Source of the DNA: Eledone cirrhosa | Taxonomy: Eukaryota | Assembly: GCA_964016885.1 (NCBI GenBank) | Contig: OZ024743.1 | Span: forward strand, 338,086,001-338,150,000 | Direction of reading: 5' to 3' | Length of the DNA stretch: 64,000 nucleotides | Shown: one piece after another, positions 12,001 to 60,955 of the stretch | Layout of the letters: every line of letters starts with the position of its first letter | How positions within the stretch are numbered: position 1 is the first letter of the stretch | Program-made: the position numbers and the translations under genes | The notes under the pieces: generated by a model | What the model saw: only the letters and a program-made list of their open reading frames with translations | The model's database searches: none | Told to the model about the DNA's origin: nothing

Positions 12001-13170
12001 ACCCTTTTCATTATCATCATCACCGCCATTTTTATTACCAACACTACACCACAACCCTTCTCATCATCATCACACCACCATTTTTATTACCAACACTACA
12101 CCACAACCCTTTTCTTCATCATCACACCACCATTTTTATTACCAACACTACACCACAACCCTTTTCAACATCATCACCACCACCATTTTTATTACCAACA
12201 CTACACCACAACCCTTTTCATCATCATCATCACCACCACCATTTTTATTACCAACACTACACCACAACCCTTTTCATCATCATCACCACCACCATTTTTA
12301 TTACCAACACTGCACCACAACCCTTTTCATCATCATCATCACCACCACCATTTTTATTACCAACACTACACCACAACCCTTTTCATCATCATCATCACCA
12401 CCACCATTTTTATTACCAACACTACACCACAACCCTATTCATCATCATCATCACCACCACCATTTTTATTACCAACACTACACCACAACCCTTTTCATCA
12501 TCATCATCACCACCACCATTTTTATTACCAACACTACACCACAACCCTTTTCAACATCATCACCACCACCATTTTTATTACCAACACTACACCACAACCC
12601 TTTTCATCATCATCATCACCACCACCATTTTTATTACCAACACTACACCACAACCCTTATCATCATCATCACCACCACCATTTTTATTACCAACACTACA
12701 CCACAACCCTTTTCATCATCATCATCACCACCATTTTTATTACCAACACTGCACCACAACCCTTTTCATCATCATCATCACCACCACCATTTTTATTACC
12801 AACACTACACCACAACCCTTTTCATCATCATCATCACCACCACCATTTTTATTACCAACACTACACCACAACCCTATTCATCATCATCATCACCACCACC
12901 ATTTTTATTACCAACACTACACCACAACCCTATTCATCATCATCATCACCACCACCATTTTTATTACCAACACTACACCACAACCCTTTTCAACATCATC
13001 ACCACCACCATTTTTATTACCAACACTACACCACAACCCTTTTCATCATCATCATCACCACCACCATTTTTATTACCAACACTACACCACAACCCTTATC
13101 ATCATCATCACCACCACCATTTTTATTACCAACACTACACCACAACCCTTTTCATCATCATCACCACCAC
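1..13170. repeat. Tandem satellite, monomer ~50-56 bp (TTTTATTACCAACACTACACCACAACCCTTTT(CAT)n(CAC)nCAT), with kb-scale higher-order duplications; runs off the 5' edge of the window
   Basis: The monomer is directly visible and its length varies in 3-nt steps. Variant blocks recur: 1-300 matches 3841-4140, with similar blocks at ~1337 and ~11225. The + strand is almost G-free, which explains the spurious stop-free ORFs. Confidence 0.98.
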
Positions 13171-13424
13171 CACAACAACCACCATCATCATCATGATCTT
13201 CATCATCACCATTATTATGACTCCCATCACCCCCATCATAATCATCATCATCACCACCACCATAATCATCATTATCATAATCACCACCATCAACATCATC
13301 ATTATCGTCAACAACAATCCCACCACCACCATCACCATCACTATCAAGGCCATCATCATCATAATTATCATTATCATCACCCCCACCACCATTATCTTCC
13401 TCGTCCTCATCATTACCAACCCCA

Positions 13425-15330
13425 TTTATCGTCACCACCGCCACCATCAGTACCACCACCACCACCACCACTATCATTACCATCATTATCGTCACCACCG
13501 CCACCATCAGTACCACCACCACCACCACCACTATCATTACCATCATTATCGTCACCACCGCCACCATCAGTACCACCACCACCACCACCACTATCATTAC
13601 CATCATTATCGTCACCACTGCCACCATCAGTAACACCACCACCACCACCACCACCACTATCATGACCATCATTATCGTCACCACCGCCACCATCAGTACC
13701 ACCACCACCACCACCACTATCATTACCATCATTATCGTCACCACCGCCACCATCAGTACCACCACCACCACCACCACTATCATTACCATCATTATCGTCA
13801 CCACCGCCACCATCAGTACCACCACCACCACCACCACTATCATTACCATCATTATCGTCACCACCGCCACCATCAGTGCCACCACCACCACCACCACCAC
13901 TATCATTACCATCATTATCGGCACCACCGCCACCATCAGTACTACCACCACCACCACCACTATCATTACCATCATTATCGTCACCACTGCCACCATCAGT
14001 GCCACCACCACCACCACCACTATCATTACCATCATTATCGTCACCACCGCCACCATCAGTGCCACCACCACCACCACCACCACTATCATTACCATCATTA
14101 TCGGCACCACCGCCACCATCAGTACTACCACCACCACCACCACTATCATTACCATCATTATCGTCACCACTGCCACCATCAGTGCCACGACCACCACCAC
14201 CACTATCATTACCATCATTATCGTCACCACCGCCACCATCAGTAACACCACCACCACCACCACCACCACTATCATGACCATCATTATCGTCACCACTGCC
14301 ACCATCAGTACCACCACCACCACCACCACTATCATTACCATCATTATCGTCACCACTGCCACCATCAGTAACACCACCACCACCACCACCACCACTATCA
14401 TGACCATCATTATCGTCACCACCGCCACCATCAGTACCACCACCACCACCACCACTATCATGACCATCATTATCGTCACCACCGCCACCATCAGTACCAC
14501 CACCACCACCACCACTATCATTACCATCATTATCGTCACCACCGCCACCATCAGTACCACCACCACCACCACCACTATCATTACCATCATTATCGTCACC
14601 ACCGCCACCATCAGTACCACCACCACCACCACCACTATCATTACCATCATTATCGTCACCACCGCCACCATCAGTGCCACCACCACCACCACCACCACTA
14701 TCATTACCATCATTATCGGCACCACCGCCACCATCAGTACTACCACCACCACCACCACTATCATTACCATCATTATCGTCACCACTGCCACCATCAGTGC
14801 CACCACCACCACCACCACTATCATTACCATCATTATCGTCACCACCGCCACCATCAGTGCCACCACCACCACCACCACCACTATCATTACCATCATTATC
14901 GGCACCACCGCCACCATCAGTACTACCACCACCACCACCACTATCATTACCATCATTATCGTCACCACTGCCACCATCAGTGCCACGACCACCACCACCA
15001 CTATCATTACCATCATTATCGTCACCACCGCCACCATCAGTAACACCACCACCACCACCACCACCACTATCATGACCATCATTATCGTCACCACTGCCAC
15101 CATCAGTACCACCACCACCACCACCACTATCATTACCATCATTATCGTCACCACTGCCACCATCAGTAACACCACCACCACCACCACCACCACTATCATG
15201 ACCATCATTATCGTCACCACCGCCACCATCAGTACCACCACCACCACCACCACTATCATTACCATCATTATCGTCACCACCGCCACCATCAGTACTGCCA
15301 CCACCACTATCATCATCATCATCGTCGTCG
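13425..15330. repeat. 60-bp (60-66) minisatellite ATCGTCACCACCGCCACCATCAGTA(CCA)nCTATCATTACCATCATT with a ~798-bp higher-order duplication
   Basis: Consecutive 60-nt lines are identical. ORFs 13876..14277 and 14674..15075 are identical and 798 bp apart. Confidence 0.97.
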
Positions 15331-15419
15331 TAATCAGCACCATTGCCGCCAAAAGCAAGGGTTGTTTTCATCTCTTCTAGAAAGGTCTCTGACACCATAT
15401 TGTGAAGAAATGTTGATTG

Positions 15420-16232: not shown

Positions 16233-16292
16233 TTTAATTTACCAGTGGTTTCTTAAAAGCAAAAAATTTTGCTTTCAATCATCAGAATGAAA
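16233..16292 (-). ncRNA. Type I hammerhead ribozyme with intact core
   Basis: The minus strand reads TTTCATT-CTGATGA-[TTGAAAGCAAAA/TTTTGCTTTTAA stem II]-GAAA-CC ACT GG-TA-AATTAAA. Stem I pairs 6/7 and the cleavage triplet is GUA. Confidence 0.75.
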
Positions 16293-16302
16293 AAATCCTG
16301 TT

Positions 16303-16363
16303 TTTCATTCTGATGATTGAAAGCAAAATTTTTTTGCTTTTAAAAAACCACTGGTAAATGAAA
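16303..16363 (+). ncRNA. Hammerhead ribozyme copy with a GAAA->AAAA core change (likely inactive)
   Basis: Reads TTTCATT-CTGATGA-stem II-AAAA-CCACTGG-TA-AATGAAA. Stem I is a perfect 7 bp, but G12 is replaced by A. Confidence 0.65.
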
Positions 16364-18280: not shown

Positions 18281-20495
18281 TTAAGGGTTCGATTTGTAGT
18301 GCGAAAACTTCTCTTTGAGTCTATGGTTACAATAAATTGATCTTTCGATTTTATTGTTGAGTAACTTATTCTTCGAACTCAAGATATGGAACAGCTCAAG
18401 GTCGCATAATCGACAGCTTCTCATACCACTCCGATATGGGGGCGCGTTCGATAATTTGTTCCACTTCAGGGTGTATTGATGGTTACTTTCCCTCAGTTGC
18501 CAGGTCTTGTTTGCAAGGGTAGTTACATAACGATGCTGGGAATATTTCATTGCGTAACGGTGTGTATACCAACGGGCTTTAAATGTATTCCCAGTCGCTC
18601 CGATGTAATACCATTTCTGGTTGTCTGATTCCACTGTGCATTGGTAAACCAGGTTAGACTGCATACATTCATTTTGTAATGGACAGGTTTCAGGTAGGTG
18701 GCAGTTACAGTTCTTGTCATGGGCAACTTTGGCATTATTGGTGGGCATTATTGGTGGGCATTATTGGCGGTGGATTGGCAGTATCGGTGGAGGGTCGGAC
18801 GCCATGCCTTCCAGCATAGTTACGTCCCTTTACGATCTGAGTTCAAATCCCGCCGAGGTTGACTTTGCCTTTCATCCTTACGGGGTCGATAAAATAAAGT
18901 ACCAGTAATGCACTGGGTAATTGCTGGCCTTGTGCCTAAAGTAGAAACAATTATTGGTGGGCTGCGATGCCTGTACAAGTGTGTTACGTTTTGTTTGCCT
19001 ATTAGTGGGTGGTTGTGTATTAGATATTCTGTTGTATCGGTGGTGATTGTATTGTTATTGTTGTAAATTTGTGTTTTTGTGTTGTTATGTATCTTTTTAA
19101 CGTTAAGCATCTTAATGTGTGCCTCTATATTTGGTGCCGTGGAGTAAGATAGTCTAATAGATTTAGTGTTAAGGATTTTGCTGTATCTATGTGAATCTGG
19201 AAAGTGCTTATTTATTATTCTAAAGAAGGTAGAGGGTAGGTTAGTACTAATAGAGGTGTTAAATATGGGGTTATACCAAATATATTTTCTACTACGTGAC
19301 TTGTTTGATTTCGATGTTGTATTTCTATTTGCCGTATACTTTGCAGTTCTATGCGTAAGTGCGTGTGTGCGTGTGTTACCAGAGTTTGTGTTATGCGTGT
19401 TCGTGTGCGCTTCACGGAGGCTTTCATCTATATATTCTACTCTATCTAAGTGGCCTGCCTTGTCTAATGCGGTATTGTAGTATTCTGCGTGTTCTTCGAA
19501 GATTTGTCGGTTAGACGAGAGGCGGGAGATCCTAAGGGATATGCTGCGTGGAATGGATGTAATTATGGATAGTGGGTGGTTTGAGTTACAGTTGATGTAT
19601 GCTAAGTTTTCATTAATCTTGTGAAAAGGTCTTATAAGTCCCGTATTTAGGTTAAGCGTCGAGTCTAGAAAGTTAACTGTTTTAGTGCTATACTCATACG
19701 TTATGCTAAGGTCTAGTTTCCTGAGAGTCTTTCTAATATTATTACGGAGTCTTTCTATGCTCTGATTATTTAGGTTCTTAACTAGGGGAAGGGCGTCGTC
19801 TCTGTAGATTCCACCGTGAAGGTCGCTAAACTCAATTTGTAAACTATGGGCTATGTAAATACCTACTAAATCTGTGACTTGAGCCGAGTCATTTAGCCCC
19901 CATCGTGATGTCAGAGTTATTTAATCTATCCTTACGTTCCCAATAGGCGTTTTCAAATTTAATTATTGTTTTACTAGCAGCTAATATGATTTTTATCTCG
20001 TCGTCTGTTATGTCAGAATTGGCTTTGGCGAATGCTAAGGCTTTATCCAAGGTCTTGAGGGATATAGATGAGTAATAATCGTTAATGTCAAATTGTATAA
20101 ATTTAGATACTTCTTTGTTAGCTATATTGTTAAACCACTTAATTGTTTCGGTAGCGTTACCCCATAGTTTAATCACTAGTTTATTCTTCATTTGTGCTAT
20201 CACTCTGTCTAATATCTGTTTACTAATTTTCCCGATGTCCGATTTGGACAGGCATATAAGTCTAATTGTGGGGTTATAATCAAAATTTACCTTGTGGTCC
20301 TTGAGGTTAAATGTGGGGGTAGGTGGCCTAAGTGGCTCCGTTCTGTCGTCTATTTCTAGGTGTTTGACTATATTGTGTGCTTCGTTGTTGATGTTTATCA
20401 GTGCCGCCTCATTAGTTTTTTTGTATTTTCTATGCAATTCCTTCCGTATGAAGCTATTGTATGTATTAACATCCATCGTATACACATTTGATGTG
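18281..20495 (-). pseudogene. Naiad-like PLE RT/GIY-YIG ORF, broken by a +1 frameshift (~19892) and a SINE insertion (~18766-18955)
   Basis: ORFs 19889..20485, 18820..19110 and 18281..18748. The frame from 19890 to 18955 is stop-free by manual translation. Confidence 0.88.
18766..18955 (+). mobile_element. tRNA-derived SINE, family A young subfamily, inserted in the Naiad ORF with 13-bp TSD ATTATTGGTGGGC
   Basis: Pol III A-box-like TGGCAGTATCGG and B-box-like GAGTTCAAATCCC, body GCCTTTCATCCTTACGGGGTCGATAAAATAAAGTACCAG, tail GTAGAAACAATTATT. Near-identical to 44668-44856. Confidence 0.9.
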
Positions 20496-20539
20496 TATAT
20501 ATATATATAAAAGAATAGAGGTGTAACATACGAGTTGTG

Positions 20540-21087
20540 ATATATTGGTAAATGGAAAAGAAAATGCTGACAAATTGTTCCAAGTGAAAAATAGTTTAAG
20601 TAGGAATAAGTAAAAATTAGTAATAAGTAGTGGTTAGTATTCAGTTTTAGTTTTAAGTTTTTACCGGTTGCGCATTTCTAATGCTTTTCAAAAATAATTT
20701 TGAGATAGAGCGCCCGTGATGTTTGCTCTAATCTGATTAGTTTTGGAAATTCTACCTGTTTTATGTGAAAAAAGTGGCTCCAGAGGTATTAAAATAAGTT
20801 TCGCGCCAATTCGTGTTGTAAAAATTCTTGTGGTCAAAACAATTTTGATTGGTCGGTAGAGGTCACGTGAATGTTAAAAATTGATTTTGCGCCAAATGTA
20901 GGTTTGTCGAAGAGTGTCCTTTTTCGCCTGATTGAGAAGTCACTGAAAAATAAGTCTTTTAAGACAAATATGTGTGTGTGTGTGTGTGTAGTAAAGAGGT
21001 TCATTGTTGTGATAATGGTCAGTAGGGATGTGTGTGTGAATTGCAGTCATGTTGAAAGGTCAACATTTCAGGTGCCTATTAAAACAA

Positions 21088-21165
<78 letters not shown>

Positions 21166-23717
21166 CAGAGTAATTCGTGGTAGAGGGATCGGTCAGTAGG
21201 AATGTGTCTGTACGTGTGTGGGGGATACAAAAACACAAGTCAAACCTCAACAAGAAAGAATGGGAATAATTAAATAGATTAAAAACCGACAGAACCATTA
21301 CAATTAAAGAGGCTGATAAAGGGAGTACAGTAGTCCTAATGGAGACAGAATTCTATATCAACTTAGCGCTCTCCACTTTGGAAAACGAAACATACTACGA
21401 AAAGGCTGTACACTACAATCAACAGAAAATTATGAGAAACCTAAAAACTCTGATCAACCAATACAAAGAAGGACTCACTAGTAAGGAATTCAGCTTCATC
21501 ACAGACTTCACAAGTAAATCCAGCCTTTTCTACGGTATCCCTTAAGTACATAAAAGCGAATTAATAAGTAAGGCATGGAAGGAAGCCACAGACATAGTCA
21601 TCAATGTCCCCTCACCTAATGATCTCAAATTAAGACCTATAATAGCAGGCCCCGCTTGCGAAACCCACCGCCTTAGCAACTTCATTGATACCCTTCTCAA
21701 GCCTTTTCTCAAACACATCAAAAGCTATATAAGGGACGACCTAGATATGCTCAATCACCTCCCTAATATGCCCCTTTCTGAACAAACCCTACTAGTGACG
21801 TTCGATGTAGTCAACCTATACTCCAACATCTCCCACAACCTAGGAATAGAAGCTATCCAATTCTGGCTGGATAATTACCACAATGAACTCCCACAACGCA
21901 TCAAAAAAGAATTCGGGATAGAGGGACTCAAATTTATCTTGGAGAACAATTACTTCGTTTTCAATAACAAATCCTACAGGCAGAAATCTGGTACTGCTAT
22001 GGGAACGAAAACAGCCCCCACTTATGCCAACCTAGTCATGGGATACCTGGAAATCACCCTCTACACTAAAGTACTAAACAAATTTGGAAACACTCTCCAC
22101 TTACACATAGAAAAGAACTGGAAGCGATATCTAGATGACTGCTTCACCCTTTGGCACGAAAACATCGAGAAACTTAAAGAATTTCACACCCTTATAAATG
22201 GACTCAACACGAATATTAACTTTACGATGGAGTACAGCCATCAACAACTCCCCTTCCTCGACATCCTCATTAAGATTCATAACAAAAAAATAGTAACAGA
22301 CATATACTACAAGCCCACAGACTCCAAGCAATATCTTCCTTTCAACTCTTGCCACCCTAGACACGTTAAAATTAATTTTCCCTACAACTTAGCCAAGAGA
22401 ATCTGTACTATAGTCTCCAATAAAAACACCTGTTATTTACGGCTACAAGAACTAAAGGACACACTCATAGGCAGGGACTACCCTGCATCACTAATTGACA
22501 ATGGAATCCAACGTGCCCTAAAACTCAGTACCCAGGACCTTAGACACCCTAAAGTAAATCAACCGAAACTAAAAGCTCTTCCATACATCTCAACACACAA
22601 CCCCCTCAACAATGAGGCCTTTGACACCATCCTCCAGAACATCCCTGTGTTAAAGAAGGACCATAGAATGAACTAAATCCTTCGAACACACGATATCATA
22701 AAGAGCAAAATACAATCCAAGTCAATGAAAAACATCCTAACACATGCCAAAGTACTGCCAACCACAACAACGAAACCCACAGTAAAAAAGTGCGATAGAC
22801 CCAACTGTGGCATTTGCATCAACCTAATAGAGGGTTCGGAATTCTATTTCAAAGAAGGACAACGTTTTATAGTAAAACACAATTTCACATGCGCATCAGA
22901 AAATCTAATATATGTATTAACTTGCTCAGGTTGTCGAGAACAATACATAGGCCAGACCAAAAGCAGCCTCCGCCAACGCATGACTGTCCATAGATCCCAA
23001 ATTAAAATACGGGAATGCAGGAAAATACCACTGAGTGAAGACATTGATACCTGTGCCGCCCAAAATCATCCCAACTTTAGAATCTTTCCCCTCTACAAAT
23101 TTAAAGATAATGCCACCCACACCCAGCGCATCAGCAAGGAATCTCACTTTATTAACAAATACGGACCCCGTCTAAACACTTCTCCCTAAGACGAACCCAC
23201 AACATACACACTTCAACATACATACCTACATCAGCATACATCTCTATCCACATATAAACACAATGACATACGTAAACACACATGTTCTATGGTGCAACAC
23301 AAATATACACAAATTTGCATACCTTTTGATGTCTATAGATATACATGTGCCGACACACACACATACATATACGCACACATGCATTGCACACTGATGGGCA
23401 CATACATATTTGTGCACAAGTATTCCATTACGGCAGGGCCTAATGGATTCCCCTTGCAGTACGTACAATCTGGACACTCACACACACCTTGGTGTTATGA
23501 CAATACTATATATCATTTCACACCTTTTATTATTAATGTTTTTGATGTTCTCTTGAGAGAATCGTTTTTACTGAAAATATCGAATAATGTACACCATTTT
23601 TACCAGTATCACAAAAATACTCCCCCCCCACACACACACACATACACACATATACACACACACACACACATATATATACACACACACATACACACGCGTA
23701 CACTAACATACAAAGAG

Positions 23718-26689: not shown

Positions 26690-27570
26690 GTGTAGCTGTA
26701 TATTTGTGTAGCTGCGTAAATGTGTACCTGTATTACAGTGTTTTGTGTGTCTGAGTTGCTGTGTAGCTGTGTACCTGTATAGCTGTGTGTTTAAGTTGCT
26801 CTATACATATATTTCTGTGTAGATGTGTAGCTGTGTAGATGTGTAGCTGTATAGCAGTGTACCTGTATAGGTGTGTGGCTGTGTAGCTGTGTACCAGTGT
26901 ACCTGTGTAGCTGTGTAGCTGTAGAGCTGTGTACCTGTGTAGCAGTGTACCAGTGTACCTGTGTAGCTGTGAGCTGTGTAGCAGTGTACCTGTATAGCTG
27001 TATGGCTGTGTAGCTGTGTAGCAGTGTACATGTATAGATGTGTAGCTGTGTACCTGTGTAGCTGTGTAGCTGTATAGCTGTGTAGCTGTGTATCTGTATA
27101 GCTGTATAGCTGAGTAGCTGTGTAGCTGAGTAGCTGTGTACCTGTGTAGCAGTGTAGCTGTATAGCTGTGTAACTGTGTAGCAGTGTACATGTATAGATG
27201 TGTAGCTGTGTACCTGTGTAGCTGTGTAGCTGTATAGCTGTGTAGCTGTGTATCTGTAAAGCTGTATAGCTGAGTAGCTGTGTAGCTGAGTAGCTGTGTA
27301 CCTGTGTAGCAGTATAGCTGTATAGCTTTGTAGCTGTATAGCTTTGTAGCTGTATACCTGCATAGCTGTGTGTTTGAGTTGCTGTATACATATATTTCTG
27401 TGTAGATGTGTACCTGTATAGATGTGTAGCTGTGTAGCAGTGTACCTGTGTAGATGTGTAGATGTGTAACTGTGTACCTGTGTAGCTATGTAGATGTGTA
27501 CCTGTATAGCAGTGTATCTGTGTACCTGTGTGTAGATGTGTACCTGTATAGTAGTGTAGTTGTGTACCTC
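26690..27570. repeat. 8-bp repeat (TGTAGCTG)n, left flank of the 24-bp satellite
   Basis: Variants TGTAGCTG, TGTACCTG and TATAGCTG, with a ~128-bp internal duplication (~27008-27135 vs ~27168-27295). Confidence 0.9.
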
Positions 27571-27599
27571 TACACATGTGTGTCTGGATTAAAATTATT

Positions 27600-30500
27600 G
27601 TGTTGTAGACATGTAGCATGTGTAGACATGTAGCCATATCTGTGAAGATGTGTACATGTTTGTGTGAAGCTGTGTAGTTTCATATCTGTGTACCTATTGT
27701 GTACTCATCTTATTGCGTATTTGTGTAAACATGTAGCTCTGTGTCTGTGTAGACATATAACTCTGTGTCTGTGTAGACATGTAGCTGTGTGTATGTGTAG
27801 ACATGTAGCTCTGTGTCTGTGTAGACATGTAGCTGTGTGTCTATGTAGACATGTAGGTCTCTGTCTGTATATATATATATATGTAGCTCTGTGTCTGTGT
27901 AGACATGGAGCTCTGTGTCTGGGTAGAAATGTAGCTGTGTACATGTGTAGACATGTAGCTCTGTGTAGACATGTAGCTCTATGTCTGTGTAGACATGGAG
28001 CTCTGTGTAGGGTAGACATGTAGCTGTGTGTCTGTGTAGACATGTAGCTCTGTGTAGACATGTAGCTCTGTGTCTGTATAGACATGTAGCTCTGTGTATG
28101 TGTAGACATGTAGCTCTGTGTCTGTGTAGACATGTGGCTCTGTGTATATGTAGACATGTAGATGAGCGTCTGTGTAGACATGTAGGATTGTGTATGTGTA
28201 GATATGTAGCTGTGTGTCTGTGTAGACATGTAGCTCTGTGTCTCTGTAGACATGTAACTCTGTGTATGTGTAGACATGTAGCTGTGTGTATATGTAGATA
28301 TGTAGCTCTGTGTCTGTTTAGACATGTAGCTCTGTGTCTGTGTAGATATGTAGCTCTGTGTCTGTGTAGATATGTAGATCTGCTTCTGTGTAGACATGTA
28401 GCTCTGTGTCTGTGTACAAATGTAGCTGTGTACATGTGTAGACATGTATCTGTGCGTCTGTGTAGACATGTAGCTCTGTGTCTGTGTAGAAATGTAGCTC
28501 TGTGTCTGTGTAGACGTGTAGTTCTGTGTCTGTGTAGACAGGTAGCTCTGTGTCTATGTAGGCATGTAGCTCTGTGTCTGTGTAGATATGTAGTTCTCTG
28601 TCCGTGTAGACATGTAGCTCTGTGTCTGTGTAGACATGTAGCTGTGTACATGTGTAGACATGTATCTGTGTGTATGTGTAGACATGTAGATCTGTGTATG
28701 TGTAGACATGTAGATCTGTGTATGTGTAGACATGTAGCTCTGTGTCTATGTAGACATGTAGCTCTGTGTATGTGTAGACATGTGGCTCTGTGTATGTGTA
28801 GGCATGTAACTATGTGTCTGTGTAGACATGTAGCTCTGTGTATGTGTAGACATGTAGCTCTGTGTCTGTGTAGACATGTAGCTCTGTGTATGTGTAGACA
28901 TGTAGCTCTGTGTCTGTGTAGACATGTGGCTCTGTGTATGTGTAGACATGTAGCTTTGTGTATGTGTAGACATGTAGCTGTGTGTATATGTAGACATGTA
29001 GCTCTGTGTCTGTGTAGACATGTAGCTGTGTGTATGTGTAGGCATGTAGCTCTGTGTATGTGTAGACATGTAGCTCTGTGTATGTGTAGGCATGTAACTC
29101 TGTGTATGTGTTGAAATGTAGCTGCGTGTATGTGTAGACATGGAGCTATGTGTATGTGTAGACATGTAGCTCTGTGTCTGTTTATATATATGTAGCTATG
29201 TGTATGTGTAGACATATAGCTGTGTCTGTGTAGACATGTAGATCTGTGTCTGTGTAGACATGTGGCTCTGTGTATGTGTAGACATGTAGCTTTGTGTATG
29301 TGTAGATATGTAGCTGTGTGTATATGTAAACATGTAGCTCTGTATCTGTGTAGACATGTAGCTCTGTGTCTGTGTAGGCATGTAGCTCTGTGTCTGTATA
29401 GCATGTAGCTATGTGTCCGTGTAGACATGTAGCTCTGTGTCTGTGTAGAAATGTAGCTGTGTACATGTATAGACATGTATCTGTGTGTCTACGTAGACAT
29501 TTAGCTCTGTGTATGTGTAGACATGTAGCTCTGTGTATGTGTAGACATGTAGTTCTGTATCTGTGAAGACATGTAGCTCTGTGTATGTGTAGACATGTAG
29601 CTCTGTATATATGTAGACATGTAGCTCTGTGTATGTGTAGACATGTACCTCCGTGTATGTGTAGACATCTAGCTGTATGTATAGACATGTAGCTCTGTGT
29701 GTGTGTAGACATGTAGCTCTGTGTCTGTCTAGGCATGTAGCTCTGTGTATGTGTAGACATCTAGCTCTGTGTATGTGTAGACATGTAGCTGTGTGTATAT
29801 GTAGACATGTAGTTCTGTGTCTTTGTAGACATGTAGCTCTGTGTCTGTCTAGGCATGTAGCTCTGTGTCTGTATAGACATGTAGCTCTGTGTCAGTGTAG
29901 ACATGTAGCTCTGTGTCTGTGTAGACATGTAGCTGTGTACATATGTTGACAGGTATCTGTGAGTATGTGGAGAGATGTAGCCCTGTGTCAATGTAGACAT
30001 GTAGCTCTGTGTATGTGTAGACATGTAGCTGTGTGTATGTGTAGACATGTAGCTGTGTGTCTGTGTAGACATGTAACTGTGTGTATGTGTAGACATGTAG
30101 CTGTGTGTATATGTAGACATGTAGCTCTGTGTCTGTGAAGACATGTAGCTCTGTGTCTGTATAGGCATGTAGCTCTGTGTCTGTGTAGACATCTAGCTCT
30201 GTGTATGTGTAGACATGTTGCTGTGTGTATATGTAGACATGTAGTTCTGTGACTGTGTAGACATGTAGCTCTGTGTCAGTGTAGACATGTAGCTCTGTGT
30301 CTGTGTAGACATGTAGCTGTGTACATGTGTAGACATGTATCTGTGTGTATGTGTAGTTATCTAGCTCTGTGTCTGTGTAGACATGTAGGTCTGTGTCTAT
30401 GTAGACATGTAGCTCTGTGTATGTGTAGACATGTAGCTCTGTGATGTGCAGATGTGTAGCTCTGTGTCTGTGTAGACATGTAGCTCTGTGTCTGTGTAGA

Positions 30501-33500
30501 CATGTATCTGTGTGTAGGTGTAGACATGTAGTTCTGTGTCTGTGAAGACATGTAGCTCTGTCTCTGTATAGGCATGTAGCTCTGTGTCTGTGTAGACATC
30601 TAGCTCTGTGTATGTGTAGACATGTAGCTGTGTGTATATGTAGACATGTAGTTCTGTGACTGTGTAGACATGTAGCTCTGTGTCTGTGTAGACATGTAGC
30701 TGTGTACATGTGTAGACATGTATCTGCGTGTATGTGTAGATATCTAGCTCTGTGTCTGTGTAGACATGTAGCTCTGTGTCTATGTAGACATGTAGCTCTG
30801 TGTATGTGTAGACATGTAGCTCTGTGATGTGCAGATGTGTAGCTCTGTGTCTGTGTAGACATGTAGCTCTGTGTCTGTGTAGGCATGTAGCTCTGTGTCT
30901 GTGTATACATGTAGCTGTGTACATGTGTAGACATGTATCTGTGTGTATGTGTAGACATGTAGCTCTGTGTCTATGTAGACATGTAGCTCTGTGTATGTGT
31001 AGACATGTAGCTCTGTGTATGTGTAGGCATGTATTTCTGTGTCTGTGTAGACATTTAGCTCTGTGTATGTGTAGACATGTATCTCTGTGTATCTGTAGAC
31101 ATGTAGATGTGTGTATGTCTAGATCTGTAGCTGTGTGTATGCGCAGACATGTAGCTCTGTGTATGTTTAGACTGTAGCTCTGTGTCTGTATATATATGTA
31201 GCTATGTGTATGTGTAGACATGTAGCTCTGTGTCTGTGTAGACATGGAGCTCTGTTTGTGGGTATCCATGTAGCCGTGTGTCTGTGTAGACATGTCGCTC
31301 TGTGTATGTGTAGCCATGTAGCTGTGTGTATGTGTAGACATGTAGCTGTGTGTATATGTAGACATGTAGCTCTGTGTCTGTGAAGACATGTAGCTCTGTG
31401 TCTGTATAGACATGTAGATCTGTGTCCGTGTAGGCATGTAGCTGTGTACATGTGTAGACATGTATCTGTGTGTATGTGTAGACATGTAGCTCTGTGTCTG
31501 TGTAGACATGTAGCTGTGTACATGTGTAGACATGTATCTGTGTGTATGTGTAGACATGTAGCTCTGTGTCTGTGTAGACATGTAGCTCTGTGTCTATGTA
31601 GACATGTAGCTCTGTGTCTGTGTAGACATGTAGCTCTGTGTATGTGTAGACATGTAGATGTGTGTATGTGTAGATATGTAGCTGTGTGTATGTGTAGACA
31701 TGTAGCTCTGTGTGTGTAGGCACGTAGCTCTGTGTCTGTGTATATATGTAGATCTGTGTATGTTTAGACATGTAGCTCTGTGTATGTATAGACATGTAGC
31801 TCTGTGTATGTGTAGACATGTAGTGCTGTGTCTGTGTAGGCATGTAGCTCTGTGTATATATAGACATGTAGCTCTGTGTCCGTGTAGACATGTAGTTATG
31901 TGTCTGTGTAGACACGTAGCTGTGTACATGTGTAGACATGTATCTGTGTGTATGTGTAGACATGTCGCTCTGTGTCTGTTTAGACATGTAGCTCTGTGTA
32001 TGTATAGACTAGTAGTTCTGTGTCTGTGTATATATGTAGCTCTGTGCATGTGTATACATGTAGCCCTATGTATGTATAGACATGTAGCTCTGTGTCTGGG
32101 TAGACATGTGGCTCTGTGTAAGTGTAGACATATAGCTGTGTATCTGTGTAGACATGTAGGCCTGTGTATGTGTAAACATGTAGCTGTGTGTCTCTGTAGA
32201 CATGTAGCTGTGCGTTTCTGTAGACATGTAGATCTGTGTCTGTGTAGACATGTAGCTCTGTGTCTGTGATGACATGTAGCTCTGTGTCCGTGTAGACATG
32301 TAGCTCTGTGTCTGTGTAGACATGTAGATGTGTCCATGTGTAGATATATGGCTGTGTGTATGTGTAAACATGTAGCACTGTGTATGTGTAGACATGTAGC
32401 TCTGTCTATGTGTAGACATGTAGCTGTGTGTATGTATAGACATGTAGCTCTGTGTCTGTGTAGACATGTAGCTCTGTGTATGTGTAGACTTGTAGCTCTG
32501 TGTCTGTGTAGGCATGTAGCTCTGTGTCTGTATAGGCATGTAGCTCTGTGTCCGTGTAGACATGTAGCTCTGTGTCTGTGTAGACATGTAGCTCTGTACA
32601 TGTGTAAACATGTATCCCTGTGTATGTGTAGAGATGTAGCTCTGTGTCTGTGTAGACATGTAGCTCTGTGTCTATGTAGGCATGTAGCTGTGTGTCTGTG
32701 TAGACATGTAGCTTTGTGTATATGTAGACATGTAGCTCTGTGTCTATGTAGACATGTAGCTCTCTGTATGTGTAGACATGTAGCTATGTCTCTCTGTAGA
32801 TATGTAGCTATGTCTCTCTGTAGACATGTAGCTGTATTTATATCTAGACATGTAGCTCTGCGTCTGTGTAGACATATAGATCTGTGTCTGTGTAGACATG
32901 TAGCTCTGTGTCCGTGTAGACATGTAGCTCTGCGTCTGTGTAGACATGTAGTTCTGTACATGTGTAGACATGTAGCTTTGTGTCTGTGTAGACATGTAGC
33001 TCTGTGTCTATGTAGACAGTTAGCTCTGTGTATGCGTAGACATGTAGCTCTGTGTATGTTTAGACATGTAGCTCTGTGTGTGTGTAGACCTGTAACTCTG
33101 TGTCTGTGTAGACATATAGCTGTGTCTATGTAGACATGTAGCTCTGTGTCTATGTAGGCATGTAACTGTGTGTCTGTGTAGACATGTAGCTGTGTGTCTG
33201 TGTAGACATGTAGCTGTCTATCTGTGTAAACATGTAGCTGTGTGTCTGTTTAGATATGTAGCTGTGTGTCTGTGTAGACATGTAGCTGTGTGTCTGTGTA
33301 GATATGTAGCTATTGTCTGTGTAGACATGTAGCTGTGTGTCTGTGTAGATATGTAGCTGTGTGTCTGTGTAGCCATGTAGCTGTGTGTCTGTGTAGACAT
33401 GTAGCTCTATGTATGTGTAGACATGTAGCTGTGTGTCTGTGTAGACATGTAGCTGTGTGTCTGTGTAGACATGTAGCTGTGTGTCTGTGTAGACATGTAG

Positions 33501-34630
33501 CTCTGTGTCTGTGTAGACATGTAGCTCTGTGTCTGTTTAGACATGTAGCTCTGTGTCTGTGTAGACATGTAGCTCTGTGTCTGTATAGACATGTAGCTCT
33601 GTGTCCGTGTAGACGTGTAGCCCTGTGTCTGTGTAGACATGTAGCTGTGGACATGTGCAGACATATAGCTCTGTGTCTGTGTAGACATGTATCTCTGTTT
33701 CTATGTAGACATGTAGCTGTGTGTCTGTGTAGACATGTAGGTCTGTGTATGTGTAGACATGTAGCTGTATGTCTGTGTAGACATGTAGCTAAGGGTCTCT
33801 GTAGACATGTAGCTCTGTGTATTTGTAGACATGTAGCTGTATGTATATCTAGACATGTAGCTCTGTGTATGTGTAGACATGTAGCTCTGTGTCTATGTAG
33901 ACATGTAGCTCTGTGTATGTGTAGACATGTAGCTCTGTGTATGTGTAAACATGTAGCTCTGTGTGTGGGTAAACATTTAACTCTGTGTCTGTGTAGACAT
34001 ATAGCTGTGTCTATGTAGACATGTAGCTGTGTGTCTGTGTAGACATGTAGCTGTGTGTCTGTGTAGACATGTAGCTGTGTGTCTGTGTAGATATGTAGCT
34101 GTGTGTCTGTGTAGACATGTAGCTCTGTGTCTGTGTAGACATGTAGCTGTGTACATGTGCAGACATGTAGCTCTGTGTCTGTGTAGACATGTAGCTCTGT
34201 TTCTATGTAGACATATAGCTGTGTGTCTGTGTAGACATGTAGGTCTGTGTATGTGTAGACATGTAGCTGTATGTCTGTGTAGACATGTAGCTATGGGTCT
34301 CTGTAGACATGTAGCTCTGTGTATTTGTAGACATGTAGCTGTATGTATATCTAGACATGTAGCTCTGTGTAATGTGTAGACATGTAGCTCTGTGTATGTG
34401 TAGACATGTAGCTCTGTGTGTGGGTAAACATTTAACTCTGTGTCTGTGTAGACATATAGCTGTGTCTATGTAGACATGTAGCTCTGTGTCTCTGTAGGCA
34501 TGTAGCTGTGTGTCTGTGTAGACATGTAGCTGTGTGTCTCTGTAGGCATGTAGCTGTGTGTCTGTGTAGACATGTAGCTGTGTGTCTCTGTAGACATGTA
34601 GCTGTGTGTCTGTGTAGATATGTAGCCGTG
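27600..34630. repeat. 24-bp satellite TGTAGACATGTAGCTCTGTGTCTG (~290 copies)
   Basis: Directly visible. It produces the 8-aa periodic pseudo-ORFs (LCRHVALC, HRATCLHR, QSYMSTQT). Confidence 0.98.
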
Positions 34631-34649
34631 TACATATGTGTCTATGTAA

Positions 34650-35310
34650 TGTGTAACTGTGTTGACTGTATATGTTTGTGTAGTTGTGTAACTGTGTAGT
34701 TGTATGTCTGTGTAGCTGTAATTCTGCGCAGCTGTATGTCTGTGTAGCTCTATGTCTGTGTAGCTGTATATCTGTGTAGCTGTGTAACTGTGTAGTTGTA
34801 TGTTTGTGTAGCTGTATAACTGTATAGCTGTATTTCTGTGTAGCTGTATGGCTGTGTAGCTATATGTCTGTGTAGCTGTATGTCTGTGTAGCTGCATGTC
34901 TGTGTAGCTGTGTAACTGTGTAGTTGTGTTTGTGTAGCTGTATAACTGTATAGCTGTATGTCTGTGTAGCTGTATGGTTTTGTAGCTGTATACCTGTATA
35001 ACTGTGTAGCTGTATGTCTGTGTAGTTGTATGTCTGTGTAGCTGTATAACTGTATAGCTGCATATCTGTGTAGCTGTATAACTGTGTAGTTGTATAACTG
35101 TGTACCTGTATAACTGTGTACTTGTATAACTATGTACCTGTATGGTTGTGTAGCTGTATGTCTTAGTAGCTATATACCCTTGCAGCTATATACCCCTGTA
35201 GCTGTATAGCCCTGTTGCTGTGTAGCCGTGTATCTGTGTACCCGTGTAGCTCTGTAGCTGTGTAGCTGTGTAACCGTGTAGCCGTGTAGCCGTGTAGCTG
35301 TGTAGCTGCT
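34650..35310. repeat. 8-bp repeat (TGTAGCTG)n, right flank of the 24-bp satellite
   Basis: Directly visible, in the same orientation as the left flank. Confidence 0.9.
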
Positions 35311-42405: not shown

Positions 42406-43819
42406 ATACTTGCAAATCTGCATTTGATATGTTCTTAGGTCTTTTTATAAGTAATTAAAATTAGTACGTACATTTACAGTAGGTAGAGTGTTGACAGCAG
42501 GTGTCTGTTCTACAAAAAGGAAAAAAGAGAGCGAAAAAGAGAGAACGTATTCAGACATTCTTTAGAAGAAAGTATAGTCTTCAACCAATGATATGTCACC
42601 GAAGCGGGAACCATTCACCACCAGCACATAACCTTTCAAGGAAAGCGTTTCAGCTAATTTCTGAGTGAAATCGTAAAACTGATGTAGTCGTAGAGTTGCC
42701 GTTCTGACATACGATGTGTCTTGGGCATTTTAAACCTGACTGAGCCCTTACCATCTACAGGTTTGAACACAGCCGATTTCTTTCGGAGCTGGTAATTTTT
42801 TTTATCGACCTCGAAAAGCAAAGTTGACCTCGGCGATATTTGAACTCATAGAACGCAGAAAACTGGAACGATTGCCGCAAAGCATTCAGTCCAGTGTTCT
42901 AACGACTCAACCAATTCGCCATCTAAATAAATGGATGTCATTGTATGTGCATGTGTGTGTGACAGCTCACACCTATGCAAGGTATATCTCGTTGGAGGTG
43001 TCTTGGGTGATTTAATGATAGGGACCCCAGTCCTATCATCTCATTTCTACAACTGAGTAAACTGGAGCAGCGTGAAATAAAGTGTCTTGCTCAAGGAAAC
43101 AACACATCACCCGGTCCGATAATTAAACTCACAACCTTTCCGTTGCAAGCCCAATGCTCTAACCACTAAGCCATGTGCCTTCATTGTATATATATAATTG
43201 TTTCTACTTTTGGCACAATGCCAGCAATTATCCAGTACATTACTGGTACTTTATTTTATCGACCCCGTAAGGATGAAAGGCGAAGTTAACCTCGGCAGTG
43301 TTTAATTAGTGTTTAATTAGACACAAGGCCAGTAGTCTGGAAAGGCTGGTTCTTTGATTTATCAAATCCAAAAGGGTGAAAGACAAAGTTAACATTTGCC
43401 AGATTTGAACTCAGAATGTAGAGGGTCGTAACAAAATATCACAAAGCAATTTTTCCGATACTTTAACGTATCTGCCACCCCAGTGGCGTCCGACCAAGGT
43501 CTGTATAATGATTTCTAATTTCGGTACAAAGCCAGTAATTTTTAGAAAAGGGGAAAGTCTCTCCCAGTACTTTATTGGTACTTTATTTTATCGACCCCAG
43601 AAGATTGAAAGGTAAATATGACCTCGGTAGGATTTGAACACAGAATCTAAAGCGCCGTAACTACGTATATGTCGCAAAGCATTTTCTCCGGTGCTCTAAC
43701 TATACTGATAATCCACCGCCCTTTATTAAGGTATATGCGATGATATAGGCTTAATCGAGACCGGAAGTGCATAGAACAGTTGCCAAAAGTACGTTTTACT
43801 ATTGCCACCAAAGCACATA

Positions 43820-44470
43820 ACCGGCGTTTCCTTGAGGCTCGGCCTTCAGATCTACGAGCCACACCAATGTCGCTGCGGATCCACCGTGGATTCTTTCGGC
43901 CGTCACCCGCTTTCCTGTCGCCACAGCGCCGGCCGCCTTTCACGCCATGCTGCCCTCAACGAGGTCATAAAGCATGGCTTGGACGCTGCAGGCTTCCCTT
44001 CCCAGCTTGAGCTGATGGGGTTGGATCGAGGGGACGGCAAAAGACCAGATGACATGACCATCTTCCCGTTCCGCGGTGGCAAGCCCCTCGTCTGGGATGC
44101 CACTTGCACCGACACTTTCTGCAGTCGCAACCTGGTGCAGTCTGCGACTAACCCAGGTTCTGCTGCACGTCGGGCTGAGAAGGCCAAACTCCTCAAATAC
44201 CGGTCGCTCTCCGACAGGTTTGCGGTTGTACCCCTGGCAGTGGAGACTTCTGGTGTCCTCGGCCCCAGGGCTACCTCCCTACTCACCACCATAGGCGCTG
44301 AGCTGGCCAGCCGCAGGTGTGAGCCCGCGAGTTGGAGTGGCTTTTCCAGCGCGTCTCCCTTGCCGTCCTCCGGGGAAACGCCTTCTCCATTCTGTCCGCC
44401 GGGGCTGTGGGAAGCCCTATCGCGTACCATTCCATATTTAAGTATGGTCGACAAGAAATACTTCTAATTC
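43820..44470 (+). mobile_element. 3' fragment of a CRE-clade (restriction-like endonuclease) non-LTR retrotransposon
   Basis: A GC-rich island. The ORF shows LRLG, Zn-knuckle CRCG..HPLSC, RHAALN, KRPDD..WDAT, AEKAK..KY and PLAVETSG. After a frameshift at ~44325 it reads LFQRVSLAVLRGNA, the typical CRE C-terminus. Confidence 0.85.
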
Positions 44471-50622: not shown

Positions 50623-50715
50623 ATGGACATAGATTCTGACGTTACAGTTAAACGTACTTTCCGTCGTTATGAGGTGTACAGGGGTCAGTCTCCAACCAGT
50701 CAAAGTAGGACTGAG
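50623..50715 (+). CDS. Prm: First coding exon of a probable paramyosin (MDIDSDVTVKRTFRRYEVYRGQSPTSQSRTE), followed by a phase-0 intron
   Basis: Strong Kozak context AAACCATGG, 31 codons, then a perfect donor GAG|GTAAGT. The VYRGxSP.....RxE pattern matches my recollection of the non-helical head of mollusc/flatworm paramyosins. I did not recognise exon 2 in the window. Confidence 0.72.
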
Positions 50716-50952
50716 GTAAGTGTCTTTTTGTTTTTTTGTACAATATTTATTGATGTTGTTGTCGTTGTTGATGTCGTCGTTATGATTGTCTTTTTGCCAG
50801 TCGCAACTTTCACCACTGCTTATTGATTTCGTTGATCATTTAGTGTTACACTTCCTAATTTTATTCGTGTGGTTTTCATTATAGTAAAGCTTTTCCTGTA
50901 TTATATATATATAATAAATATATACATATATATATATACATATATATATTTA

Positions 50953-53224: not shown

Positions 53225-53422
53225 GTAAGTAAGACCCCGACGGCTGAGCTCAAGCCGTTTCGACGGCTAATTCTGTACAATTGAGTACAGAATTAGCCGT
53301 CGAAACGGCTTGAGCTCAGTCGTCGGGGTCTTACTTACTCCTATTACCCACTCTACTACCCTAAGTATTGAGTACTTTGGTGCGTTATGGTCCACCTGGT
53401 TCCTTACCACTTTTCCTTCGCT
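53222..53422. mobile_element. P1 fold-back mini-element in (TA)n, with a partial left arm and a full right arm
   Basis: Palindrome centred at ~53281 with GAAACGGCTTGAGCTCAGTCGTCGGGGTC. The right arm is homologous to 16980-17116. Confidence 0.8.
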
Positions 53423-55964: not shown

Positions 55965-56102
55965 CGGCTTTCCCGATGATTTCCTTCGAATGAAACAGTT
56001 CTAGTCCTGTAGAAACCATTTCTATATTAAATTTCGTATATACTCTACTAATGTATTGAGTACCTTACTTACTGTGGTTACCTCCGATTGAACCCGGGAC
56101 TC
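55965..56102 (+). mobile_element. Solo P3 pLTR-like element with a hammerhead variant (core CCGATGA)
   Basis: Reads TTTC-CCGATGA-T TTC CTTC GAA T-GAAA-CAG TTCTAGTC CTG-TA-GAAA. The tail is homologous to 60490-60566. Antisense fragments lie at 56574-56610 and 56622-56660. Confidence 0.75.
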
Positions 56103-56496: not shown

Positions 56497-56581
<85 letters not shown>

Positions 56582-56653
56582 AATGGCTCCTACAAGACTA
56601 GAACTGTTTTATATATATATATAATATAGAAATGGCTTCTTCAGGACGAGAAC

Positions 56654-56697
<44 letters not shown>

Positions 56698-60001: not shown

Positions 60002-60384
60002 ATATATGTGTCTGTGTATGTATATGTATGTATGGGTATCTACACTTTATTTTCCTTAAGTAAAGAGCACAAAGTTGAATAATGGTTTTATTGGACTTGT
60101 AAAATATCGTACATTTCTCTCTGTGTGTGTATGTGCGCGCGTGTGTGCGTGCGTGTGTGTGTTATGTTTATATATATATATATATACATATACATACACA
60201 CACACATGCATACACACACATATATATGTGTATATATGTATATATATATAATATGTACAACTATATGTATATGTGTGCGTATGTGTATATATATATATAT
60301 ATATATAATATGTACAACTATATGTATATGTGTGCGTATGTGTATATATATATATATATATATAAATAGTTTTAATATAGATGA

Positions 60385-60433
60385 GATTCTACAGGACTAG
60401 AACTGTTTCATTCTTTAGAAATCATCAGGAATC
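60385..60433 (-). ncRNA. Identical hammerhead ribozyme on the minus strand (left palindrome arm)
   Basis: Exact reverse complement of 60440-60488. Confidence 0.8.
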
Positions 60434-60439
60434 TGGCCG

Positions 60440-60488
60440 GATTCCTGATGATTTCTAAAGAATGAAACAGTTCTAGTCCTGTAGAATC
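60440..60488 (+). ncRNA. Type I hammerhead ribozyme, intact core, predicted cleavage after GUA (60483)
   Basis: Stem I GATTC/GAATC; CTGATGA at 60445-60451; stem II TTC-TAAA-GAA with a U.U at its base; GAAA at 60464-60467; stem III CAG/CTG; then TA. Confidence 0.82.
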
Positions 60489-60576
60489 TCATCTATATTA
60501 AAACTTTTATACTCTGCTATGTATTGAGTACCTTACTTACTGTGGTTACCTCCGATTCAACCCGGAATAACGTACC

Positions 60577-60614
<38 letters not shown>

Positions 60615-60955
60615 TGTGTGTGTGTGTGCGTGTGCGTGTGTGTGTATCTATCTATATACACACATACATATAGTATGTGTGTATATAGATATAATAGTAA
60701 TACAGTGAGAGGTAGAAATAGATATGCAGCCGCCGCACCCACATACGCACACAGACCTGAATAATTCCAGTAGCTACTGTCATTTCGACTAAAAGAAACG
60801 TAGTCAGTGGTACACATCAGGATACGCTATCGAATCCACGCCATATATGGCCAGCTGTAACCAAATAACAAACTTATACCAAGGATCCTACCATTTTTGA
60901 GTTCTTCAGTGTTGTGTGTTAGCGTGTGCTTATATATATATTTTTTTTTTTCCTA

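Follow-up and report, generated by a model that had tools for sequence, protein, structure and literature searches.

A head-to-head hammerhead palindrome in a paramyosin intron of Eledone cirrhosa, very probably an insertion by-product of a young Penelope-like retrotransposon

Inverted pseudo-LTRs (pLTRs) with junction palindromes and one-sided tails have already been published for Penelope-like elements (PLEs), in the accessible text of PMC3846280 and PMC8557442, as have opposite-strand hammerhead pairs, in that of PMC4209133. How the tandem and inverted ends of PLEs are formed, and what role their hammerheads have, are stated as open questions in the available part of PMC8557442. The metazoan PLE hammerheads published so far are weak and depend on dimers or on protein, according to the portions of PMC4209133 and PMC11167929 at hand. 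For Poseidon of Anolis, the accessible text of PMC11167929 describes two internal reverse transcriptase (RT) starts with the tail between them, shows that both strands of the target are cut and extended, and finds that the main template is uncut RNA.

Here we consider a locus in a stretch of 64,000 nucleotides (the window) of the Eledone cirrhosa genome (contig OZ024743.1, positions 338,086,001 to 338,150,000). Its sequence identifies the palindrome as the pLTR end of a young Penelope-like retrotransposon, which is assigned to the Hydra clade by motifs, and the palindrome is very probably a by-product of the insertion of that element. Our reading as a whole is that this is a young head-to-head PLE insertion, in which two cDNAs would both have run to a capped RNA 5' end near the start of the hammerhead; we regard this as fairly probable. 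The locus itself is ordinary. The family to which it belongs bears on the questions of PLE end formation and hammerhead role, and the combination of a young family, an intact parent and more than a thousand near-perfect junctions makes the PLE mechanism testable.

The palindrome and its host intron

Features of the locus are collected in Table 1, where signed positions are numbered from the hammerhead C3 = 0. In the window sequence, 60368-60505 form a 138-bp palindrome in which 68 of 69 positions are complementary, the arms (60368-60434 and 60439-60505) flanking a 4-nt centre, GGCC, whose midpoint is 60436/60437. The sole mismatch, T60434/G60439, is a U.G pair at the RNA level. Both strands carry the hammerhead core CUGAUGA...GAAA...GUA, with each conserved type I position in place (C3-U4-G5-A6-N7-G8-A9, G12-A13-A14, A15.1-U16.1 and H17). 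The three helices, with helix I open, have 6, 3 and 4 bp: stem I has five Watson-Crick pairs and a G.U on the + strand and six Watson-Crick pairs on the - strand, stem II has a U10.1.U11.1 mismatch before its pairs and a UAAA loop, and the 8-nt loop of stem III contains the palindrome CUAG. The + strand is predicted to be cut after GUA, at 60483|60484. The identical core is present in 258 of 359 motif instances of the family, a count in which overlapping loci enter more than once. The G10.1-C11.1 pair is absent and U.U is found across the entire family; natural U.U variants at these positions exist and are the best tolerated mismatch, as stated in the accessible part of PMC3088659. Loop II is variable across the family while stem II stays constant, and in one further subfamily a compensatory pair is seen in 6 instances of helix I. 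An assembly artefact could be ruled out, since the head-to-head form recurs on many contigs with different centres.

Table 1. Features of the locus in the window
Feature	Position	Strand	Remarks
First matched paramyosin coding exon	50623..50715	+	MDIDSDV...SRTE; donor GT at 50716
Older solo family copy, same intron	55970..56097	+	86% identical; without adjoining inverted arm
Left flank	60280..60367		(TA)n/(TG)n microsatellite target
Inverted arm	60368..60437	-	pLTR copy from +60 back to -9; AGCC before stem I
Complete hammerhead motif in inverted arm	C3 at 60428	-
Junction base	C60438		absent from parent template; may be an RNA cap copy
Junction base	G60439		parent has A; possibly a second cap copy or a point change
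Type I hammerhead motif	60439..60489	+	C3 at 60445
Stem I	60439-60444/60484-60489	+
Core CUGAUGA	60445-60451	+
Stem II	60452-60463	+	first pair U.U
GAA	60464-60466	+
Stem III	60467-60482	+
A17	60483	+
Remaining direct arm	60490..60505	+	to inner end point +60
One-sided tail	60506..60577	+	~70 nt; ends at outer start site +129 to +132, TA microhomology
Right flank	60578..60660		(TA)n then (TG)n microsatellite

The original prediction had described a 136-bp palindrome with a complete hammerhead on each strand. The palindrome and both motifs are real and the length is 138 bp; its 5-bp stem I holds for the Watson-Crick pairs of the + strand, within a stem of 6 bp that includes the G.U. The same cut position, 60483/60484, is predicted from the motif, and the element, drawn as 60369..60566, ends about 11 nt further out on the right, at 60574-60577. 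The Rfam check proposed with it was negative: for the window, the element and a single arm, RF00008 scored 10.9-12.5 bits against a cut-off of 48.5, Hammerhead_1 and other hammerhead models were not among the matches listed, and the remaining matches were only microsatellite or miRNA look-alikes. In the parent element the tail stretch runs into the ORF, and the inner end point, +60, is where inverted arms and one full-length copy stop.

The placement in a paramyosin intron proved correct. A tblastn search with paramyosin proteins found the exon at 50623-50715, which a coiled-coil scan of the window had not picked up, and further exons 10-24 kb beyond the window end, all on the + strand. The next exon lies 10.3 kb past the window end, and the splice between the two is in frame, so that donor and acceptor enclose a + strand intron of 23,595 nt around the palindrome, which lies 9.6 kb and 13.8 kb from the splice sites. 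The older solo copy in the same intron has the altered core CCGAUGA and a weakened stem I; 480 nt downstream of it, at 56573-56661 on the - strand, are two short inverted family fragments. The intron also contains a palindrome at 53244-53319 whose arms resemble one half, GAAAC-helix III, of hammerheads from a third family, and pieces related to it flank two surveyed loci (L050 and L055). The depth from three runs of one sample (contigs) is pooled for the whole family and does not represent the window copy.

Folding was modelled with and without the upstream arm, which the original prediction had proposed to pair with the ribozyme and silence it. With the arm, the hammerhead fold is predicted to be disfavoured by 78 kcal/mol on either strand, compared with 4.2-4.5 kcal/mol for the motif alone (4.5 being the value set against 78) and 7.4 kcal/mol for the motif with tail, and the hairpin ensemble is put at -122.6 kcal/mol. 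Given this penalty, the paramyosin pre-mRNA would carry a 67-bp hairpin with the ribozyme unfolded, and the hairpin is predicted to block folding of the + strand ribozyme. The free motif is itself not the predicted minimum-energy fold, and for helix III the model gives -12.8 kcal/mol for a dimer duplex versus -1.4 kcal/mol for the hairpin. The lock proposed for this ribozyme is thus upheld in the folding model, but not as a selected switch: locking is the geometry of every head-to-head copy, on either strand, and gives no sign of selection. The lock is most likely a neutral by-product and at most a reason why such copies are tolerated in introns.

The parent element and its family

The species' own genome, of 3.0 Gb, was searched for relatives of the locus. 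With a 202-nt query, most of the 40 scored candidates, out of 934, matched over nearly the full length at 91-100% identity. Exact matches numbered 7,806 for a tail word (3,887 and 3,919 on the two strands), 16,398 for a hammerhead word (9,189 and 7,209) and 112 for an ORF-start word (56 on each), and a head-to-head junction word gave 1,167 and 1,168 strand matches; the reversed control was 0 in each case. The junction matches therefore correspond to at least 1,168 head-to-head loci and, by the share found among tail-selected loci (59/90, see below), the genome probably holds some thousands of perfect hairpins of 60-70 bp. Many are presumably intronic and would be a ready source of dsRNA for editing or silencing. 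The hammerhead word, not the tail word, is skewed by strand; this may reflect a tail-less unit that is tandemly repeated on one strand in a large array somewhere in the genome.

The tail continues into the ORF at three loci (L084, L047 and L060), which provided the route to the parent. An intact copy, L222, is 6,039 nt long and consists of a truncated pLTR, an open frame of 758 codons (713 from the first ATG), a 3' UTR which is a microsatellite of about 3 kb, and a second pLTR that stops at +60. Over 136 nt its identity to the direct arm of the window is 99.3%, which bears out the proposed PLE origin, and the inverted pLTR end that had also been proposed is found both at the locus and in the survey described below. 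The insertion is very young, since its arms show no difference from each other over 66 bp and share 99% identity with an intact parent.

The single ORF of L222, lying between the pLTRs, has the YRDD of an RT together with a GIY-YIG-type nuclease motif at the C terminus (IVY...YIG), the layout of an EN+ PLE. It further contains RWR, DKT, CNCLNKEAC (CxCX5C), CDLC (CxxC) and CMH (CxH), and between IVY and YIG two cysteines 8 apart. Across 55 homologues an RWK-type motif occurs in 44, DKT in 54, CxCX5C in 38, CxxC in 54 and CxH in 53, and a canonical CxxC between the GIY and YIG words in none. In a profile comparison L222 matched the RVT_1-bearing ORF of the window (92.8%, E 4e-7) and, weakly, a retron RT (E 0.024). 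A Pfam search of pieces of the parent returned no RT or GIY-YIG match, and one homologue gave a weak one (E 0.006).

Two broken PLE ORFs in the window were considered as parents and ruled out, as neither has a DNA match to the family. One (21068-23189, +) carries RT (PF00078) and GIY-YIG (PF01541) domains, is followed by a microsatellite-rich tail and has a Cx4CxxC linker that is Neptune-like by motif; the other (18281-20677, -) lies head to head with it and, having CxCX5C and GIY-like motifs, apparently belongs to another Hydra-type family. Elsewhere in the window lies a head-to-head palindrome of a different family (16261-16334), where the CUGAUGA..GAAA core of either strand comes with a very short stem II. 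There are also two long low-complexity tandem arrays (1-15400, with a GC skew near -0.94, and 26700-35200) and a 230-codon open frame (43775-44467, +), which we take to resemble a non-LTR retrotransposon ORF at its C-terminal end. Related arrangements were also seen at surveyed loci. L224 (contig C1, 67879-67881 kb) is a same-strand trimer of a 222-nt unit made up of hammerhead, tail and ORF start, retrozyme-like in its sequence and potentially able to form dimeric hammerheads. An older subfamily, with helix I AGCTTC/GAAGCT, likewise forms a head-to-head palindrome at L042 (1141-1352), tail to tail with a young copy on the other side of a single (TA)n tract. At L049, a head-to-head palindrome of another hammerhead family, with the core CUGAGGA..GAAAC and a duplicated centre, lies about 170-310 nt upstream of the tail match.

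Junctions and the origin of the mirror arm

Two samples of junctions were compared. The tail sample comprised 90 of the first 100 listed of the 7,806 tail-word matches, all of them from a single contig, within its first 60 Mb, leaving out three matches inside L084 and the last seven listed; the junction sample comprised 40 further loci chosen by junction pattern alone from the first 100 listed matches. An inverted arm adjoins the 5' end in 59 of the 90 tail-selected loci, apparent inversions at L048, L112 and L116 having been rejected as low-complexity matches and counted as non-inverted. The outer end of the tailed arm is at +129 in 59 of the 90 and within +129..+132 in 76, and (TA)3 adjoins the tailed arm in 86, as expected for (TA)n insertion. 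In 54 of 59 the inverted arm has its outer end at +53, +60 or +66, at each of which a TA matches the target. At the centre, 32 of 59 inverted arms end within -7..-4 (p 2e-31 versus a uniform distribution over -60..+40), as do 19 of 59 tailed arms.

Of the 40 junction-selected loci, 39 have the tail on a single arm and none has it on both. Among 61 parsable centres from the 130 loci there are 38 distinct sequences, and the perfect centre, the closest to that of the window, occurs at 7 loci only. Loop II is the same in both arms of 34 of 36 copies, against 14.4 expected for arms drawn independently. The variety of centres, the one-sided tail and the matched arms together indicate that each insertion produces its mirror arm afresh, from the same source variant; concordance of the arms would also be expected if subfamilies were active in succession or if arms convert each other. 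Compared arm with arm over 67 copies, there are 65 scattered differing sites and 35 variants in common, hence the family is young. The tailed arm is shorter by at least 8 nt in 11 copies and the inverted arm in 2, and the arms do not overlap in 3. Two possible signals were set aside. Tailed arms starting at +37/+39 (3 of 59) had been considered as cut-site junctions and thus evidence of cleavage, which a 6-nt microhomology explains equally well, and G12-to-A changes (5 of the 65 arm differences) were too few.

Long copies of the main subfamily have TATAAA at -36 and CCAGATT at -8..-2. The latter is initiator-like by the consensus YYANWYY. The arms end at the first hammerhead bases, 30 nt below the TATA box, and the 5' end of the PLE RNA, to judge from these motifs, likely coincides with those bases. 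When an arm ends at A(-6) and inserted bases follow, the next base is G in 14 of 17 (p 5e-5), while the template has C; for L1 insertions, the available text of PMC9341517 accepts an untemplated G as the mark of cap copying. Three copies (L173, L175 and L038) carry an extra base on both arms. The window copy belongs to a second, AGCC subfamily, whose TATA lies at -37..-40 and is in register upstream in 20 of 30 loci. Here the arm end point shifts together with the TATA box: an end at -9/-10 with a cap-type base was counted by eye in 38 of 61 strand matches, versus 6 of 46 in the main subfamily, where the matches are arms reaching -9. GAGCC is junction sequence and was rejected as template upstream of the hammerhead; for the extra C of many AGCC-subfamily junctions, the other arm could be the source. 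The commonest arm end is -5, where the next base is T in 24, G in 14 and C in 3. The cap trace is therefore clean only at -6, and the cap model has to assume either early fall-off or a further start at -4. The first base of L222 is itself at -12 (about -9 once TA microhomology is allowed for), which lies upstream of the start we propose.

We think it rather probable, on the start site and cap that these sequences suggest, that the palindrome arose by a two-primer cap run-off. The TATA box and initiator of the pLTR would start a capped RNA at stem I, and the element protein would cut both strands of a (TA)n target. The outer site (+129) would then be primed by one DNA end and an inner, TA-matching site (+53/+60/+66) by the other, with a single uncut RNA, or RNA from the same source copy, as template. 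Priming in the first pLTR of the RNA, not the last, would make both cDNAs short and let them run off the cap, copied as one extra base, and the two 3' ends would be joined with 0-9 untemplated or microhomologous bases. The inner primer may sometimes block the outer cDNA and so shorten the tailed arm; the excess of shorter tailed arms and the three non-overlapping copies fit this twin-priming prediction. In its sharpest form, with the capped 5' end of the mRNA being the hammerhead itself and the head-to-head pLTR two sense-templated cDNAs, one per cut strand, run off the cap, the model stands at about an even chance. If it is true, the thousand-plus junctions are a fossil map of RNA 5' ends and speak against antisense self-priming and for an uncut template. 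The only cut of the ribozyme would then remove a 45-nt capped leader, making the hammerhead a possible switch between translated and reverse-transcribed RNA.

The main rival, which we consider unlikely, keeps the same parent and by-product status: one cDNA reaches the RNA 5' end, folds back, primes itself, copies to about +60 and is captured by a (TA)n overhang or, in a variant proposed for rotifer PLEs, an antisense RNA folds on itself. Fold-back accounts for the one-sided tail and the matched arms without two primers, some centres do contain short copies of the arm's own sequence, and self-priming is the reading of PLE junction palindromes in the accessible text of PMC3846280. Yet at many centres the loop has just 0-1 nt, which is not long enough to prime by pairing, and the three copies with an extra base on both arms do not suit it. 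The 11 copies (versus 2) in which the inverted arm extends at least 8 nt further 5' would need a later deletion, and a sense, TATA-linked end with a cap-type base is not what an antisense template would give. It is improbable that the cluster of ends marks instead a splice acceptor or a structural stop at the hammerhead, with the extra G as the end of a short upstream exon. In both subfamilies CAG at -7..-5, behind a T-rich tract, does look like an acceptor, the intron of the D. virilis Penelope ends at the 5' edge of helix I (as given in the available parts of PMC4209133 and PMC2377424), and -5 is the commonest end. Against this, the 61 centres have no constant exon sequence, their inserts being variable and of 0-9 nt; ends in the AGCC subfamily lie 5' of the CAG, in unspliced sequence; and an RT moving 3' to 5' would already have opened stem I on reaching its 5' strand.

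Two further readings, both in the spirit of the original prediction, are very improbable. One is a non-coding palindromic mini-element, transcribed and re-inserted as a unit in the manner of a MITE or retrozyme. Dozens of copies are indeed 91-100% identical over the whole 202 nt and a few centres recur, but 38 centres in 61 copies largely refute it. Perfect-centre copies differ in outer ends and subfamily markers, arms track the subfamily variants of the linear parent, and the surveyed copies failed to share a centre together with both ends, as copies of a palindromic master would. The palindrome is better described as a truncated product of an autonomous element. The other is a self-locking ribozyme or editing substrate retained by the host to tune the paramyosin pre-mRNA. 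The position inside the intron and the predicted hairpin energies would suit such a lock, and the altered core of the solo sense copy fits selection against unlocked ribozymes, in one case. However, the insertion is very young, over a thousand similar copies exist genome-wide, the splice sites are 9.6 and 13.8 kb away, a perfect 67-bp duplex has no evident unlocking route, and the free motif itself is predicted to fold poorly. We therefore retain the two-primer cap run-off as the preferred reading.

Comparison with known systems

In LINE-1 twin priming, two target ends prime on the RNA and produce a 5' inversion whose arms do not overlap; in the present family, by contrast, most arms overlap along their full length, with both extending to the 5' end. 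A search of the literature, outside subscription journals and supplements, found nothing tying inverted PLE junctions to cap traces or start-site run-off. Families and hammerheads are listed in the supplements of PMC8557442 and PMC4209133, which may include this family or such pairs.

The comparisons that follow refer to the accessible parts of each source. Hydra-clade EN+ PLEs (Craig et al. 2021, PMC8557442) share with the family RW[K/R], DKT, the CxCX5C linker, the C-terminal CxxC and CxH, the lack of CxxC between the GIY and YIG words, the pLTR hammerhead and (TA)n targets. The described Hydra families are mostly shorter than 3 kb, whereas the family here, with thousands of young copies, reaches about 6 kb (6,039 nt in L222) because of its 3-kb microsatellite 3' UTR. 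The non-LTR retrozymes (bioRxiv 10.64898/2026.07.22.740005) are similarly non-coding, PLE-derived and equipped with a type I hammerhead; they are defined as same-strand tandem repeats, whereas the window locus is an inverted pair. Poseidon of Anolis, studied in vitro (Frangieh et al. 2024, PMC11167929), likewise has two RT starts near the ORF start and AT-rich targets, but belongs to a different clade, and its account deals with neither inverted junctions nor the 5' end of the RNA.

PLEs of Schistosoma mansoni (Cervera and de la Pena 2014, PMC4209133) also have opposite-strand hammerhead pairs and a palindromic loop III. Their pairs are 100-700 bp apart and receive no further analysis there, whereas those described here abut, and the present motif has U10.1.U11.1 where G10.1-C11.1 would stand, with a helix III of 4 bp. 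The nearest likeness is with the EN+ PLEs of Adineta vaga (PMC3846280, PMC8557442), which share the head-to-head inverted 5'-truncated pLTR, the junction palindrome, the one-sided tail, and TATA and initiator-like motifs in the pLTR. Most copies here are, unlike those, minimal, consisting of hammerhead and tail without ORF, and the tail is about 70 nt rather than 30-40 nt. Finally, whereas PMC3846280 favours self-priming on an antisense template, the junctions described here point to a capped sense template.
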